From Hoeflea sp. (GTDB lineage Bacteria > Pseudomonadota > Alphaproteobacteria > Rhizobiales > Rhizobiaceae): a stretch of 64,000 nt of DNA. Below are positions 5,238-62,820 of this stretch, one piece after another (positions within the stretch are counted from its first letter, which is position 1; every line of letters begins with the position of its first letter). Made by a program: the position numbers and the translations under genes. The stretch is taken from the NCBI RefSeq assembly GCF_051251555.1, contig NZ_JBPOEW010000013.1; one strand, written 5' to 3'. A model generated the notes under the pieces. The model ran no database searches. It worked only from the letters and a program-made list of their open reading frames with translations, and was not told the DNA's origin.

Positions 5238-5408
5238 GATGTCTGTCCGGTTTGTGCTGATTGAGCTATACACGAGCAATCGTGCGAAGCTACCGTTTGG
5301 TGGCACGGGGCGCCTTAACCCTGCCGCCTTATAGGCAGGTACGCGCTCTTGCCGCTTGCGCTTCGAGTGTCTACATGTCTGTCACGCGAAGAACAGCCGG
5401 AGAATCTT

Positions 5409-5699
5409 ATGATTGCAGTCTTTTCAACCATCGACATGATCCTTGGCCTCTATACCTGGATCATCATCGGCAGCGCTATTTTCTCCTGGCTTTACGCCTT
5501 CAACGTGGTCAATCCGAACAACCGGTTCGTCGGCATGATCGGCGAGTTCCTGTTCAAGGCAACCGAGCCGGCGCTCAAGCCGATCCGCCGGATCATGCCG
5601 GATCTGGGCGGGCTGGATATTTCGCCAATCATCCTGCTGATCGCGATCTTCTTCCTGCGGACCTTCATTGCCACCTCGATTGCACCGATGTTCTTCTGA
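5409..5699 (+). CDS. yggT: YggT family membrane protein
   Basis: 'WLYAFNVVN', '[26 protein letters not shown]'. Confidence 0.9.
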
Positions 5700-5713
5700 G
5701 CTGCTGGTACAAA

Positions 5714-6007
5714 ATGACGGAGAATGGTGTCGAGCTCTCAGTTCGCCTGACGCCATCCGCCTCCCTCGACGGGATCGACGGTCCGGTCGAGGATGCAGCC
5801 GGAATGGTCCGCCTGAAAGTGCGGGTCAGAGCAGTGGCCGAGAAGAACAAGGCCAATCGTGCGCTTGAAAAGCTGATTTCCAAACGATTGAAGATCGCCA
5901 AGACCGCTGTCCAGGTGATCTCCGGAGAGACGAGCCGGTCGAAGATTATCCGTGTCACCGGCGATCCCGCGGAGCTGGTGGAAAGCATCAAGGCACTTGC
6001 CAGCTGA
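5714..6007 (+). CDS. DUF167 / UPF0235 (YggU-like) protein
   Basis: 'LSVRLTPSAS.D.I', 'LKVRVRA....KANRAL', 'GETSRSK'; follows yggT as usual. Start codon uncertain. Confidence 0.8.
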   Translation: MTENGVELSVRLTPSASLDGIDGPVEDAAGMVRLKVRVRAVAEKNKANRALEKLISKRLKIAKTAVQVISGETSRSKIIRVTGDPAELVESIKALAS

Positions 6008-25863: not shown

Positions 25864-26056
25864 CAGGCTGCATCGCTTGATTTGGCGCATTTATTAAGCA
25901 AACGCAGAGGTTTCCGTCCATCTTCTATGACGGAGGGTCTTGTCGTGGCCACAGTTAATCCTCATATTGCACATAGGCATGCTGGAGCCCCGCAGCGGCG
26001 CCTGGGTCTTTGAACCCGACACCGTAAACAATACCGGGGCTTATAAAGAGGAAATC

Positions 26057-46980: not shown

Positions 46981-47154
46981 TCCGGTTTTGCCGCAAACCC
47001 GCATGACATGACCAGTTGCAGCGTCGGGATGAAATCCGGGCGCTGCGTTTCCCTTTTCCGGGGATGCCAGCCATGCCGCTCTACCCAGAGAATTTTGTCG
47101 GGACGCCGCATAAAAGCCCTTGCATTTGCATGCAAACCCTGTTGAATGCGCCTC

Positions 47155-47250
47155 ACCACAGGGGTGCCGCGTAGAGCCGCGGCTGAGATGTGGGCGCCAA
47201 GCCCACGTACCCTCGAAGCTGATCTGGATAATGCCAGCGTAGCAAGGAGG
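47155..47250 (+). promoter_or_regulatory. TPP riboswitch (THI box)
   Basis: 'aggggtgcc...ggctgagat...accctcgaagctgatctggataatgccagcgtagc', immediately before the RBS of a thiamine-related operon. Confidence 0.92.
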
Positions 47251-47257
47251 AACCAAG

Positions 47258-47866
47258 ATGTTCGCAGGCGCGCAAGTATCCCTTTACCCCATGACCGACG
47301 GGTTCGTGGACGTCATCATGTCGTCGCTCAGTGCGCTCGATCCCTGGCGTGATCGCCTGCGGATCGAGACTGACGATATTTCCACTCTCATTGTCGGGCC
47401 GCCCGAAGTGCTGTTCCCGGCGTTGCGCGATCTCTATGTCGCAGCCGCCGCATCGAGGGCGCATGTGGTGCTCAGGGCCACGCTGTCACGCGGTTGCCCC
47501 GGCGAGCCGGATGATCCGATCTGCCAGACCGGAGCGCTGGCCAATCCGTCCGAACCGCTGGCCTCACGTCAGGCCGGGGCACTGGCCGCATTGGCTGAAG
47601 CGCCTGACACTGGCGAGATCGCCCGGGCGCAGTTCTCGCTCTATGTGATGGGCGCCGGCGACCATATGGCCGAGATCATGGGCTGCATTGATTTTCTCAA
47701 ATCAAGCGGCTGCTTCGACCGGTCGAAGAATTTCTGCACCCGGCTGAAAGGCGATTCCGGTCCGGTTTTCGCCACTCTGCAGGAGGCTTTCTGCCGGTTC
47801 GGTCCTCCCGCGGGCCATGTCACTATCGATCTGACGGTGTCTGCCAACAGCCCTTCGATCAGCTGA
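47258..47866 (+). CDS. ykoF: YkoF family thiamine/HMP-binding protein
   Basis: 'GAQVSLYPM', 'TDDIST', tandem ferredoxin-like halves, 'HVTIDLTVSANSPS'; under the TPP riboswitch. Confidence 0.85.
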   Translation: MFAGAQVSLYPMTDGFVDVIMSSLSALDPWRDRLRIETDDISTLIVGPPEVLFPALRDLYVAAAASRAHVVLRATLSRGCPGEPDDPICQTGALANPSEPLASRQAGALAALAEAPDTGEIARAQFSLYVMGAGDHMAEIMGCIDFLKSSGCFDRSKNFCTRLKGDSGPVFATLQEAFCRFGPPAGHVTIDLTVSANSPSIS

Positions 47867-54276: not shown

Positions 54277-54534
54277 TCACCCTGCAATTTCAGCGGCTTA
54301 AGTGTCGGAAAACTTTGTCGTAAAAAATTCCTCAAATTCCCGTTTTTGAACGCTGAACGGGCCGAATTTCTGGAGTTGTGAAAAGGATGGTTTTCGCGGC
54401 ATACCCAAGATTAATCCCGCGTCCCCAACCTTGACTCAGCCACGCTTTTCCTGTTTATCCCGCTCAAATCTGCGACGAGCATGACTCCGAGCCGCCGACC
54501 GGGACCCTAATTGGTATAAATCGATCCCGGAGGC

Positions 54535-54570
54535 CAACACCCGACAGCGCGATGCGCCCTCGGGTGCTGT
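54535..54570 (+). promoter_or_regulatory. ffh leader RNA hairpin (alphaproteobacterial ffh cis-element)
   Basis: cacccga (54538-44) / tcgggtg (54560-66) around 'cagcgcgatgcgccc', about 70 nt upstream of ffh. Confidence 0.6.
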
Positions 54571-54635
54571 TTGGCTTTGCTTGATGCTCGCCCCATATGT
54601 GCTGGAGATCTCTTCAGCAAAAACAGGACGACCCT

Positions 54636-60400: not shown

Positions 60401-60649
60401 ATGACGATTTCTTCCATCATGACAACCGCACTCTCGGGCATGCAGACCCAGCAGAACCGCCTGATGGAAGCCGCCGGCAACATCTCCAGCGTTGGCCCCG
60501 GTGCTGCAACCGAGACCGATGCTGAAATCAGCCTCGCCTCCGAGATGCTCGACGTGATGTCGGCAGAAGTGGGTTTTGCGGCCAACGCGATGGTGTTTGA
60601 AACTGGCGCCGACCTCTGGGACGTGCTGATGAGCATCAAGCGGGATTGA
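60401..60649 (+). CDS. Small flagellar basal-body rod/hook-like protein (mini FlgC-like)
   Basis: AGGA RBS; 'TALSGM....NRL..AAGNIS' rod N-motif; 'SLASEM.DVM.A...F.ANA.V..T...L' rod C-motif. Confidence 0.7.
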   Translation: MTISSIMTTALSGMQTQQNRLMEAAGNISSVGPGAATETDAEISLASEMLDVMSAEVGFAANAMVFETGADLWDVLMSIKRD

Positions 60650-60759: not shown

Positions 60760-60897
60760 ATGCACAAGAAACCGGACCAGCAGAACAACAAGGACAAGAC
60801 CCCGGCGCCAGCCGAGCGCGAGGTCTCCGACCCTCATCCCGGCAGTGTATCTGACGGAACCCATCCTGAAGCAAACGAAGACAAGTCGGAGGACTGA
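60760..60897 (+). CDS. Small hydrophilic hypothetical protein (45 aa)
   Basis: GAGGAG RBS before ATG 60760; 'MHKKPDQQNNKDKTPAPAEREVSDPHPGS...'. Confidence 0.45.
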   Translation: MHKKPDQQNNKDKTPAPAEREVSDPHPGSVSDGTHPEANEDKSED

Positions 60898-60929
60898 GGT
60901 CGCGGAATGACTCCGGCTGCTTGCTCCGC

Positions 60930-61112
60930 TCCCCCTCTACCCTTGTGGGAGAGGAAGAAAAATCATGGTCTTGGTGCGCAGCGCCAAGTCATAGATTTTT
61001 CAGGTGAGGGGGAATCCGGATACTGAAACCGACCCCCTCTCTTGGAATTTCCGGCACTTAGCTGACGCTAAGATGCTTAAATTCGCATTCTCCCCCACCA
61101 ATGGGGAGAAGG
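60930..61112. repeat. REP-like palindromic element, CCCTCTxCCC...GGGAGAGG type
   Basis: Terminal hairpins cctctaccc-ttgt-gggagagg and ttctcccc-caccaat-ggggagaa; internal ggtgagggg/cccctctc. Confidence 0.65.
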
Positions 61113-61180
61113 CCCTGCAGCACCATCCCAGCCGGAAATCACCGCCATTTCATCCACACCTACCTCCCCGTGTCACACTG

Positions 61181-61740
61181 ATGCCGCTCCCGCTGCCGGA
61201 TGGATCGCGAACGTGTTCGACCAGGCGGGAGGAAGGCCTCTCGGGATTTGCCGTAACGTGCGGCAGGCACCGAGAGGAGGCGGAGGCCATCGGGGTTCCG
61301 CTGGCGGGCGGTCTCATTGACCGTGCAAAGCCAGCCACCGGGCCGGGTTTCGTTTCCTGCCAGCCGAAAGGCGGCTGAGGAACGCTGCACCGGTCCGGGC
61401 CTGTGGCGGACATGAGGGGTTCTTGCCCTTCAGGGTCCGTGCCGGAACCTCGCCAGACCCACTCCCGCGGTCTGTCCTGATCGCGGCCGGAGCAATCCGG
61501 GCGGGGATAAACTCCCGAAGGGTGCAAGGCGCCGCCTGTCGGATGCGGACATCATCCGGCGATACTCGGGCCGTGCGCGGGTTGCGCCACCCCTACTACT
61601 CAAATTTCCAGAGGCAATGCCCGCGTGCGGCCCTCCGGACTTTCATTTCCCAAACTCCGGCGTTGGCGCGCGCGGCAGTGACACCTGCTGCCTGTTCGAA
61701 TGTCCCCCGCCGGGAAATCGGGTTTCGCGCAAGACACCCA
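61181..61740 (+). ncRNA. Candidate large structured non-coding RNA (~560 nt)
   Basis: At least 12 helices tile the region, e.g. 61237-44/61270-77, 61338-46/61390-98 and the 14-bp 61568-81/61620-33. GAAA and GCAA tetraloops. G.U pairs are valid on + but would be A.C on -. No plausible CDS. Confidence 0.6.
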
Positions 61741-61748
61741 TCGCCCCA

Positions 61749-61850
61749 CCGTCGTCATTCTCGGCCTCCGAGCCGAGGATCCAAAGCCAAACCAGCGTGC
61801 GCCATCAGCTTAGGCATGGGTCCTCGGGTCAAGCCCGAGGATGACGACGG
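61749..61850. repeat. REP-like palindromic element, GTCATxCTCGG...CCGAGGATGAC type
   Basis: Terminal IR ccgtcgtcat / atgacgacgg; internal hairpin tcctcgg-gtcaagc-ccgagga. Confidence 0.7.
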
Positions 61851-62016
61851 AGAGTTGGCGCGCAGATGACGATGTTGGAATGCCGCCCTATCCAATGCTG
61901 TTTCTCACCCGCCCCTTGCGGCGTGTAAACCTGCATTGCAAAGTGCATACCAAGTGCTGCATCAAAAAAAGCAGCGCACCGTATTTCAGTCCCGAGACCT
62001 CATCAGGGAGAGTGTC

Positions 62017-62820
62017 ATGTCATTTGCCAAATTCACCGTCGCCGCTGCCGCTGCCGCCTTCATCGGCCTGGGCATTGTCGCCTCGCAGGCTGAAACCCTG
62101 CCGGATCTGGGCGGTAAAAACGTCGTCGTTGTCACCGAAAACGCCTATCCGCCGCTGCAGTTCATCGATCCGAAGACCGGCGAGCAGATCGGCTGGGAAT
62201 ACGACGCGATGAACGAGATCGCCAAGCGGCTGAATTTCACCGTCGAGTACCAGAACACCTCGTGGGACGCGATGATCCAGTCCGTGTCCGACGCGCAATA
62301 CGAGATCGGCATGACCGGCATCTCGATCAAGGAAGACCGCAAGGAAAAGGTGGATTTCTCCGATCCCTATCTGCGGTCCGAAATGTTCATGCTGGTGCGT
62401 GGCGACGAGGACCGGTTTGATGATGCGACATCGTTTGCAGCGTTCGAGAATGGTCTGGTTGGTGCGCAACCGGGCACCACGCCGTTTTATGTTTCCGTCT
62501 ATGACGTGCTTGATGGCGACGAGCAGAACCCGCGCATCAAGCTGATGGAAACGTTCGGCGCCACCGTTCAGGCGCTGAAAACCGGCGATGTCGACATGGT
62601 GCTGACGGATGGCGTTGCCGGCAAGGGCTATGTCGAGGCTTCCGATGGCGGGCTCAAGCTGGTCGGCGGCCCGCTGGGCGCTGATGATTTCGGTTTCATC
62701 TTCCCCAAGGGCTCGGAGCTGGTGGCCCCGGTCAACGCGGCGATTGCAGCGATGAAGGCAGACGGTACCATGGATGCGATCAACCAGAAGTGGTTCCTTG
62801 ATTACAAGCTCGGCGGCTAG
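62017..62820 (+). CDS. Polar amino acid ABC transporter substrate-binding protein (family 3)
   Basis: Signal peptide; '[10 protein letters not shown]', 'WDAMI', 'EKVDFSDPY', 'GAQPGTT'. Start ATG 62017. Confidence 0.92.

Follow-up and report, generated by a model that had tools for sequence, protein, structure and literature searches.

Large, intricately folded bacterial RNAs of unassigned role are rare, and to our knowledge each one found so far (RNase P, the group I and group II introns, OLE, ROOL/GOLLD, HEARO/OMEGA) has proved to have an unexpected architecture or to be a ribozyme or an RNA-guided machine. OLE, ROOL, GOLLD and raiA are several hundred nucleotides (nt) in size, non-coding and independently transcribed, with covarying helices, invariant junctions and GNRA loops; they are single-copy, often have particular genes linked to them, and come mainly from Bacillota, Actinomycetota or phages. 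The HEARO/OMEGA RNAs of IS200/IS605 elements (IscB, TnpB) are large, structured, multi-copy intergenic RNAs that occur in either orientation and share a layout in which a conserved scaffold is followed by a short copy-specific segment. Here we describe an RNA encoded in a 64,000-nt stretch of DNA (contig NZ_JBPOEW010000013.1, hereafter the window) from a marine Hoeflea (Rhizobiales). The RNA lies in a 1.1-kb gap that has two small open reading frames (ORFs), downstream of rplS, on one side and, on the other, at 62017, the binding-protein gene of an amino-acid ATP-binding cassette (ABC) transporter operon, and a sequence-only reading of this gap had proposed an undescribed large structured RNA on the + strand at 61181-61740. 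We show that the gene at ~61185-61690 (+) belongs to an old family of paralogues whose products are highly structured, non-coding RNAs of ~460-500 nt, and that this family is new, so far Hoeflea-only, multi-copy and dispersed, each copy having a family-specific upstream block and a terminator-like end.

Compared with these systems, the Hoeflea RNA has no match to the Rfam models of OLE, ROOL, GOLLD or raiA and differs from them in its ~20-30 chromosomal copies, its restriction to one alphaproteobacterial genus and its lack of a linked gene. It likewise has no HEARO/IS605 match in Rfam and no IscB, TnpB or TnpA among 129 neighbouring genes; its variable segment is internal and followed by a conserved hairpin, whereas that of HEARO/OMEGA is flanking DNA, and its copies are old and fixed in position. 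The Rhizobiales small RNA (sRNA) families 'cuckoo'/alpha-r35 and AbcR1/2 resemble it as scattered intergenic paralogues with their own promoter and terminator, yet these are RNAs of ~100-150 nt with two or three hairpins, 2-8 copies and Rfam models (none of which match), while the Hoeflea RNA, built around a closed multi-helix core, exceeds them 3-5-fold in length and 3-10-fold in copy number. RIME, Bru-RS, repetitive extragenic palindromic (REP)-like repeats and miniature inverted-repeat transposable elements (MITEs) are also dispersed, intergenic and multi-copy, and such repeats occur beside the Hoeflea RNA. RIME, Bru-RS and MITEs are DNA palindromes of 30-200 bp, symmetric on both strands; the Hoeflea unit, by contrast, has no terminal inverted repeats, folds on one strand, shows an excess of G.U pairs and carries a promoter-like block and a terminator-like end. 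At ~550 bp and with its one-strand fold, it also differs from REP/BIME elements, which are defined as imperfect 20-40 bp palindromes that fold equally on both strands. We know of no described bacterial RNA that combines a covarying fold of ~500 nt, a dedicated upstream block and 20-30 position-stable copies with the absence of a linked protein gene.

Two further candidates were set aside. ORF-less group II introns are alike in size (450-700 nt), multi-domain fold and multiple copies, and bacterial class C group II introns sit behind terminators; the Hoeflea RNA has no Intron_gpII or group-II-D1D4 match, no GUGYG 5' end (it begins GC(G/A)CUCCCGC) and no domain V-like bulged hairpin of 34 nt, carries its own conserved promoter-like block and is not inserted in a transcript. 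A tmRNA or tRNA-like molecule was rejected when ARAGORN found neither tRNA nor tmRNA in 60800-62000; Tandem Repeats Finder likewise gave nothing for the flagged stretch.

To place the RNA among known families we used Rfam 15, whose 4227 models include RNase P, tmRNA, 6S, SRP, OLE, ROOL, GOLLD, HEARO, raiA, the group I and II introns, riboswitches and the alpha-r sRNAs. At gathering level, the window matched only ybhL, ffh and TPP, all outside the RNA; with E values up to 10, 60850-62050 gave only chance-level microRNA and long noncoding RNA matches, at least 22 bits below gathering scores; and with E values up to 1, 20 other family members gave one unrelated 45-nt match below its gathering score. 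A full-text search of the literature, including the papers of the main bacterial noncoding RNA (ncRNA) discovery pipeline, found no description of the RNA. The sequence-only reading had seen no RNase P, tmRNA, group I or group II hallmarks, and Rfam and ARAGORN likewise found none. As far as the Rfam and literature checks reach, the family is a new RNA class.

The fold of the RNA is both strong and strand-specific. The + strand of 61181-61740 had a minimum free energy of -292.3 kcal/mol, compared with -259.8 +/- 7.6 for dinucleotide shuffles (z -4.25; 0 of 100 shuffles as good), and its reverse complement gave a z of only -0.34. The same asymmetry was seen in other members (sense z -4.20 vs antisense -2.20 in L213; -2.44 vs +1.13 in L216). 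We then aligned 74 non-redundant representatives of the family (near-duplicates removed; mean pairwise identity 65%). Over the 134 consensus pairs, 90.0% of observed combinations were canonical, compared with 84.0% in column shuffles (maximum 84.7%; 0 of 300 reached the observed value) and 36-43% when the partner was slid by 1-3 columns; for the 47 pairs variable on both sides the values were 80.9%, 64.9% and 42-49%, respectively. Changes on both sides were found in 63 of the 134 pairs, and in a separate RNAalifold consensus of 14 sequences of the rplS-ABC locus in 30 of 105. The pairs of highest mutual information were themselves helix pairs, namely 245-269 (CG 41/UA 15/GC 14), 126-165 (UA 55/CG 19) and 507-528 (CG 38/UA 21); a scan of the same measure for pseudoknots was dominated by subfamily structure. 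Moreover, the alignment held 1173 G.U cells but only 172 A.C cells, the latter being the wobble pairs expected if the opposite strand were the RNA, and therefore the + strand is the RNA strand, an argument first made from the window and now upheld at family level. These findings support selection of the element as a folded + strand RNA rather than a DNA palindrome. Its overall pattern, in which invariant blocks (CGUAACGUGCGG, GCCAGCCACCGG, CGGGCCUGUGGCGG, GCCUGUCGGAUGCGGACAYCAUCCGGC, CGGGCCGCGCGC and GCGGCCCUCCGGA) are separated by hairpins of widely differing length, is the classic appearance of a structured RNA.

This pattern also bears on whether the locus could be a protein-coding gene, a coding remnant or the mRNA of a small toxin (type I toxin-antitoxin, hok/Ldr-like), a reading to which we give almost no credence. 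E. coli Ldr/hok loci are multi-copy units of ~500 bp with structured RNA and are reminiscent of the Hoeflea family, and public annotations place hypothetical proteins on the sense strand of several copies (e.g., HPDFL43_00028710; L213:6601-7101, L215:4028-4774 and L216:4001-4498). However, neither strand has an ORF that keeps its position or frame across the copies (the best candidate, an 18-codon frame without a ribosome-binding site, occurs in 21 of 74 copies), in agreement with the initial impression that the gap holds no credible coding sequence; indels of arbitrary length separate the conserved blocks; and the annotated proteins match nothing in Pfam, with just 24 relatives among 5.8 billion sequences. 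They are almost certainly mis-annotations.

The unit and its parts, with P1-P9 denoting the helices, are as follows.

61136-61179 (+), promoter-like block: AAATC..ATTTCATCCACACC (61147-61160), a C-rich spacer and an extended -10-like TGTCACACT (61171-61179).

61185-61691 (+), predicted transcript: core 61187-61640, then a 3' tail (spacer and terminator-like hairpins) to ~61691.

61187-94/61224-31 (+), P1, the 5' hairpin: inner helix 61198-207/61212-22, conserved CGAACGU loop; 99% canonical in 74 sequences, with U.G/C-G/U-A alternation.

61237-43/61271-77 (+), P2 hairpin: inner helix 61249-55/61259-65, near-invariant tip CCGUAACGUGCGG; both-side changes in 6 of 7 outer and 4 of 7 inner pairs.

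61278-83/61532-37 (+), P3 long-range helix (AGGCGG/CCGCCU): closes the central multi-helix domain that carries P4-P7 and the variable region.

61300-10/61324-35 (+), P4 hairpin: base GCUGGC/GCCAGC; 99% canonical; consensus pair 126-165 covaries.

61338-55/61380-98 (+), P5 long hairpin: GAAA-capped tip 61360-65/61370-75; 15 of 19 consensus pairs covary.

61406-19/61426-40 (+), P6 hairpin (GCGGAC.../...GUCCGU): strongest covariation of the family (pair 245-269); 7 of 7 distal pairs covary.

61465-72/61479-86 (+), P7 hairpin: conserved loop UGUCC (61473-61477); 6 of 8 pairs covary.

61487-61531 (+), variable region: ~60 to >190 nt long between copies; ccgga-GCAA-tccgg (61487-61500) in some copies only.

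61538-45/61553-60 (+), P8 hairpin GUCGGAUG/CAUCCGGC: loop GCGGACA (61546-61552); 100% canonical and almost invariant, the family's most conserved block.

61568-88/61613-33 (+), P9 long helix: 19 consensus pairs, 93% canonical; pair 432-467 is UA 42/AU 16.

61634-61640 (+), UCCGGA(C): invariant in 74 sequences; coincides with the 3' end in one RNA run.

61641-61655 (+), G-poor single-stranded spacer CUUUCAUUUCCCAAA: differs between paralogues and tolerates a hairpin insertion of ~50 nt.

61656-63/61668-76 (+), terminator-like hairpin CUCCGGCG/CGCGCGG: present in all copies; consensus pair 507-528.

61672-78/61685-91 (+), second 3' hairpin GGCAG/CUGCC, then UGUUCG: in the window copy and a subset of the family.

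Of the 11 helices listed in the sequence-only reading, seven recur in the family consensus with compensatory changes, and four are replaced or copy-specific. Those that held are 61187-94/61224-31, 61237-43/61271-77 with its inner helix, 61300-10/61324-35, 61338-55/61380-98 with its GAAA tip, 61538-45/61553-60 and 61568-88/61613-33. In place of 61454-59/61469-74 the consensus has P7; the proposed 61500-04/61532-36 gives way to P3, in which 61532-37 pairs instead with the distant 61278-83; and for 61635-39/61656-60 there is an invariant alternative, 61442-46/61634-38, by which the UCCGGA segment may pair with CCGGA. The ccgga-GCAA-tccgg hairpin and the second 3' hairpin are real features of a subset of copies, not family-wide ones. 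The long-range closure by P3 is documented by its fifth pair (61282/61533), which is GC 48, GU 19, AU 6 and AC 1 in the 74 members and GC 7/GU 4/AU 3 in the 14-genome alignment; an alternative helix, 61278-81/61399-402, proposed by RNAalifold from the 74 sequences, was dropped since P3 has covariation. Invariant junctions, GCCACCGG and CGGGCCUGUGGCGG, lie on either side of P5. Length variation is accommodated by insertions of up to ~35 nt in the tip of P4 and a hairpin insertion of 20-55 nt in the distal part of P9 in other copies. In addition, the invariant core of the P7 loop, GUCC, is complementary to GGAC, itself invariant, in the P8 loop, so that a contact between the two is plausible as a hypothesis; the neighbouring position shows no clean covariation.

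We next considered where the conserved unit begins and ends. When 81 copies were aligned with 160 nt of flank, conservation extended from ~50 nt upstream of P1 to the terminator-like hairpin, such that the unit comprises the promoter-like block and the RNA at ~61185-61691 (the nhmmer family profile spans 61181-61674 of the window). The initially proposed boundaries are therefore adjusted: conservation does run to ~61691, but 61700-61740 is not conserved in the family and the promoter-like block lies upstream of the proposed start. The block has the family consensus AAAATCC..ATTTCATCC(C/A)CACC, a C-rich spacer and (A/G)TGCCATACT, ends 6-7 nt before P1, and is kept in all copies regardless of genomic context. 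We read its TG-n-CATACT as a putative extended -10 element, which would make the block a promoter. A sigma-70 consensus scan did not call it because a -35 element is absent. A loose motif for the block had 107 matches in 1.84 Mb of fetched DNA, of which at least 86 (76 strict and ~10 variant) directly precede a family member; the remaining matches are dissimilar and chance-like, and none inspected has the C-rich spacer. At the other end, a short U run follows the terminator-like hairpin in most copies.

Of note, other repeats lie on both sides of the unit. Directly upstream of the promoter-like block, 60925-61110 is an inverted-repeat (MITE-like) module of ~190 bp, made of two arms of ~50 nt (...TTCTCCCCCACCAATGGGGAGAAGG... 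and its complement) around a hairpin at 60957-61001. Its right arm occurs once in the window, and the module precedes ~16 of 70 family copies, while about half of the other copies have a different upstream module (CGTGGACAA...CAGCAATTCCAATCCCTTAGCC). Downstream of the RNA and before the ABC operon, 61749-61850 is a REP-like palindrome with 19-nt arms, CCGTCGTCATTCTCGGCCT and AGCCCGAGGATGACGACGG. A slightly larger piece, 61733-61859, matches intergenic sites on 50 plasmids or chromids of Rhizobium, Shinella, Neorhizobium and Phyllobacterium; it is also present at several Hoeflea loci, and metagenome contigs with the ABC gene break inside this repeat, 191 bp upstream of the binding-protein gene.

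Words of the RNA were found in 35 RNA-labelled public runs. At the H. alexandrii locus, depth in run X36 was 81 over rplS, 4-8 over the RNA (5309-5823) and 5.6 over the binding-protein gene, with nothing between, and in run X39 only rplS (8-13) and the RNA (7.5) were covered. Contigs of relatives in four RNA runs covered 61195-61642 and nothing beside; four of them ended at 61195-61202, with the reservation that branch points can interrupt the unitigs assembled from a repeat family. One metatranscriptome contig ended at 61640 (the end of ...CCUCCGGA) and continued into Illumina adapter sequence. As the coverage is confined to the RNA, the unstranded contigs indicate a discrete transcript of moderate abundance that is not co-transcribed with the ABC operon, and independent transcription of the RNA genes is the best reading. 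Together with the strand-specific folding, the covariation across over 70 homologues, the surplus of G.U pairs, the promoter- and terminator-like ends and the lack of an Rfam match, these RNA-run contigs bear out the proposal of an undescribed large structured RNA on the + strand.

In 17 Hoeflea species the RNA precedes the binding-protein gene and shares its strand, which could suggest a cis-acting leader or riboswitch of the amino-acid ABC operon (62017 onward), a link that the sequence-only reading had implied. This reading is already contradicted, and we consider its chance of being right to be negligible: RNA-run coverage falls to 0 between the RNA and the gene; the RNA has its own terminator-like hairpin and is separated from the gene by a repeat palindrome; in L006 the distance is 1.7 kb; non-Hoeflea relatives have the same operon without the RNA; and ~90% of members lie elsewhere, in random orientation and beside housekeeping genes of unrelated function. 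The RNA is thus not a cis regulator of the adjacent operon.

These other members came to light through a survey of genomes and metagenomes, and the family now numbers at least 100 sequences: 17 Hoeflea genomes at the rplS-ABC locus, 4 other loci from named Hoeflea genomes and 83 from metagenomes. At the rplS-ABC locus, blastn and the nhmmer profile identified 13 full-length and 3 contig-truncated Hoeflea loci with 67-83% identity; the flanking binding-protein gene of the window is itself closest to that of 17-20 Hoeflea genomes (83-93% identity). The suggestion of the sequence-only reading that a similar 5' sequence occurs in other rhizobial genomes proved right for Hoeflea; beyond it, the element was absent from the 60 fetched non-Hoeflea loci with the same ABC gene and from 72,556 plasmids. 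Metagenomes were scanned with a pattern of two invariant blocks, CCACCGG-N40-70-CGGGCCTGTGGCGG, which returned 120 stretches, 83 with a homologue of the whole RNA and 37 of unrelated GC-rich sequence unmatched by the family profile. The pattern also had nine matches in viral contigs, all of them rejected as GC-rich sequence unmatched by the profile (seven of the nine are mutually near-identical). Only ~10 of the 83 metagenomic copies lie at the rplS-ABC locus. Two non-syntenic metagenomic loci could be placed by their neighbours, one by PaaE (80-91% identity to Hoeflea vs at most 68% elsewhere) and the other by ParC (91-95% vs at most 83%). All assignable copies are Hoeflea; this assignment comes from loci and neighbours, the RNA itself not having been searched across the species-level genome collection.

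Copy number, which the sequence-only reading had proposed checking without foreseeing the outcome, was estimated in four DNA runs of cultured organisms as the summed contig depth over 61537-61559 divided by the single-copy depth. This interval lies in the P8 block, the peak of contig depth in DNA runs. Block depths of 2986, 237, 5557 and 920 and single-copy depths of ~135, 11, 195 and 30 correspond to ~22, 21, 28 and 30 copies per genome, i.e., ~20-30 dispersed paralogues that make up roughly 0.3% of the chromosome. Named genomes gave the following positions.

Hoeflea sp. CP121320 (complete): 1.55 Mb (after rpsA), 1.90 Mb (rplS-ABC) and 3.22 Mb (after paaE), at least 3 dispersed copies.

H. 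halophila KCTC 23107: rplS-ABC and paaE, 2 copies.

H. phototrophica DFL-43: 2.4 kb from paaE, one copy confirmed, annotated as the hypothetical protein HPDFL43_00028710.

Repeats of this number also affect assembly: the four DNA-run assemblies fragment into 35-58 pieces inside the RNA, contigs L005, L007 and L019 start at profile positions 337-403, and breaks inside the RNA are seen in DNA runs X13, X16, X17 and X18. The family is a systematic cause of assembly fragmentation in Hoeflea genomes and metagenome-assembled genomes (MAGs), and in practice short-read assemblies break at its copies while public records mis-annotate them as hypothetical proteins.

Such numbers raise the main rival to a functional RNA, namely a selfish, non-autonomous repeat that an enzyme encoded elsewhere copies, or once copied, around the chromosome and whose fold, as RNA or single-stranded DNA, serves its own recognition or propagation and not the cell. 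The ~20-30 dispersed copies speak for it, and are the strongest argument for an RNA-based mobile element, the alternative that the sequence-only reading had offered. The copies are exclusively intergenic and random in orientation relative to the nearest gene (upstream, 35 on the same strand and 34 on the opposite; downstream, 37 and 26); paralogues in different contexts are similar over a defined unit that starts at about -250 or -47 and stops at about +500-540; and two copies lie 1.5 kb apart in L121. These last are two same-orientation members on a single metagenome contig (4145-4685 and 5632-5789), which ends within the second. The 129 immediate neighbours, in contrast, fall into 69 Pfam families (PaaE-type reductases, LigB, MscS, ArsA, MFS, L19, GreA, urocanase, ParC and others) and include no transposase, integrase, reverse transcriptase, nuclease, IscB/TnpB/TnpA or IS110 recombinase, nor any family that recurs beyond chance synteny, to which the repeated occurrence of paaE, LigB, MscS, rplS, the binding protein and others is put down. 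The unit 61136-61691 has no terminal inverted repeats joining its ends and no hallmark of a retro-element, and since its promoter would lie upstream of the transcript, a copy made from the RNA could not carry it. Nor was there any match in the 72,556 plasmids or a true match in viral contigs.

The age of the copies argues in the same direction. Copies beside the same gene in different samples or species cluster together (e.g., the paaE-linked set), the same loci are occupied across species whose flanks are 80-90% identical (as for the rplS-ABC copy in 17 species), and truncated or decayed copies are almost absent, only 2 of ~85 matches seeming 5'-truncated away from a contig end. Since paralogues are only ~65% identical, there have been no recent bursts. 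Absence of the unit was seen in the Hoeflea MAG L014 (NZ_OZ245939), which lacks the ~700-bp unit at both loci examined, rplS-ABC and paaE, as might be expected of a mobile element. In the one filled/empty pair compared, L015:5099-5825 vs its close relative L014:5747-5822, ~727 bp are replaced by 76 unrelated bp with no evident target duplication, and the piece lost in L014 consists of the upstream module, promoter block, RNA and terminator, its right edge lying just past the terminator hairpin. If the whole family is missing there, L014 would be a natural control for co-occurrence analysis. The pattern is what old paralogues that are lost now and then would leave, rather than a transposon active in recent times, and past mobility is compatible with it. 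Taking both sides into account, we regard a selfish repeat as unlikely, though by far not negligible.

The reading that we put forward, to which we give about an even chance, is that of a trans-acting folded RNA particle, most likely serving a protein from another part of the genome as scaffold or decoy, with its copies co-regulated through the shared promoter block. Each unit would consist of the conserved upstream block with its extended -10-like element, a transcription start right at the 5' hairpin and a terminator-like hairpin, and the shared block would switch on all copies together. The RNA would then work in trans as a folded particle, its conserved junctions and loops forming a binding or tertiary core, while the hairpin tips and the G-poor 3' spacer, which differ from copy to copy, would be either neutral or a source of paralogue specificity; the role as a scaffold or decoy is the part that we infer purely.

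Several observations weigh against this proposal. It is conservation that speaks for the promoter; the 3' end has two candidates, 61640 and ~61690; the RNA-run evidence consists of unstranded assembled contigs in which DNA carry-over is possible (run X37 is DNA-like); and expression in the available runs is moderate, whereas stable housekeeping RNAs are typically expressed very highly. The Pfam survey of the 129 neighbours yielded no partner protein, and a search of the window for a target complementary to the 3' spacer matched only the spacer itself. Copies often adjoin other repeats, with the ~190-bp inverted-repeat module upstream and REP-like palindromes downstream, and in a crude identity tree the syntenic copies do not form one clade but are mixed with non-syntenic ones; some exchange among copies may have occurred. 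Turnover or gene conversion, an earlier reading of this tree, was withdrawn to this weaker form, as the flanks show that the species are simply 10-20% diverged. Lastly, multiple copies in inconsistent orientation have also been used as a signature of selfish repeats, and the ncRNA discovery pipeline would class such a motif, on copy number alone, as a 'mobile/repeat sequence candidate', a category that the profile of this family fits (PMC11109978). The repeats adjoining the copies, the interleaved tree, the empty sites in L014 and this classification all count in favor of the selfish repeat discussed above.

Two other readings were weighed alongside the scaffold or decoy. In the first, the copies form a 'programmable' set, in which a common scaffold of ~455 nt would recruit one trans-encoded effector and the 61641-61655 spacer, placed between scaffold and terminator hairpin, or the variable tips would assign every copy a nucleic-acid target of its own. 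We find this rather improbable; were it true, it would constitute a guide-RNA-like or ribozyme-like system that has no protein gene linked to it, in a genus from which no such system is known. The second, which strikes us as similarly improbable, is an architectural particle of RNA only, self-assembled, as a homo- or hetero-oligomer, by way of its many palindromic loops and junctions with CCGG, with the gene copies supplying subunits. Its appeal lies in the size of the RNA, its ornate multi-helix fold, its invariant loops and junctions, its GNRA tetraloops (68 of 304 predicted tetraloops) and its CCGG(A) motifs, which recur in unpaired or junction positions. RNA-only particles of the ROOL/GOLLD/OLE type have reportedly been described (PMC12286853); nevertheless, the Hoeflea RNA has no sequence or model similarity to ROOL, GOLLD or OLE, which are single-copy, often prophage-linked and found in other phyla.

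Whichever of these readings applies, the combination of a covarying fold of ~500 nt, a promoter-like block nearly exclusive to the family in the 1.84 Mb fetched, ~20-30 position-stable copies and no linked protein gene is what makes the Hoeflea RNA of interest, and as Hoeflea isolates can be grown in culture, among them the sequenced H. phototrophica DFL-43, the question of its role is directly testable.

A number of minor observations were made along the way. The 3' part of the RNA defines two subfamilies, one with a hairpin of ~50 nt (CCGCCTGTCGCGCG...ACAGGCG) inside the G-poor spacer (L171, L131, L201 and L173), the other with a different terminator-like hairpin followed by CUUUUGGC (L160, L100, L154 and L098). 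The two small ORFs between rplS and the RNA lie at 60401-60649 and 60761-60897. One, of 82 amino acids (MTISSIMTTALSGMQTQQNRL...), is found in the same position with 65-88% identity at most Hoeflea loci, and its product has relatives of 35-41% identity beside three other RNA copies (L128, L129 and L195); the other, of 45 amino acids, is rich in lysine and aspartate and poorly conserved. Elsewhere in the window, the Rfam matches above gathering score are a ybhL leader, a TPP riboswitch and an ffh sRNA, at 25974-26044, 47150-47263 and 54523-54574.

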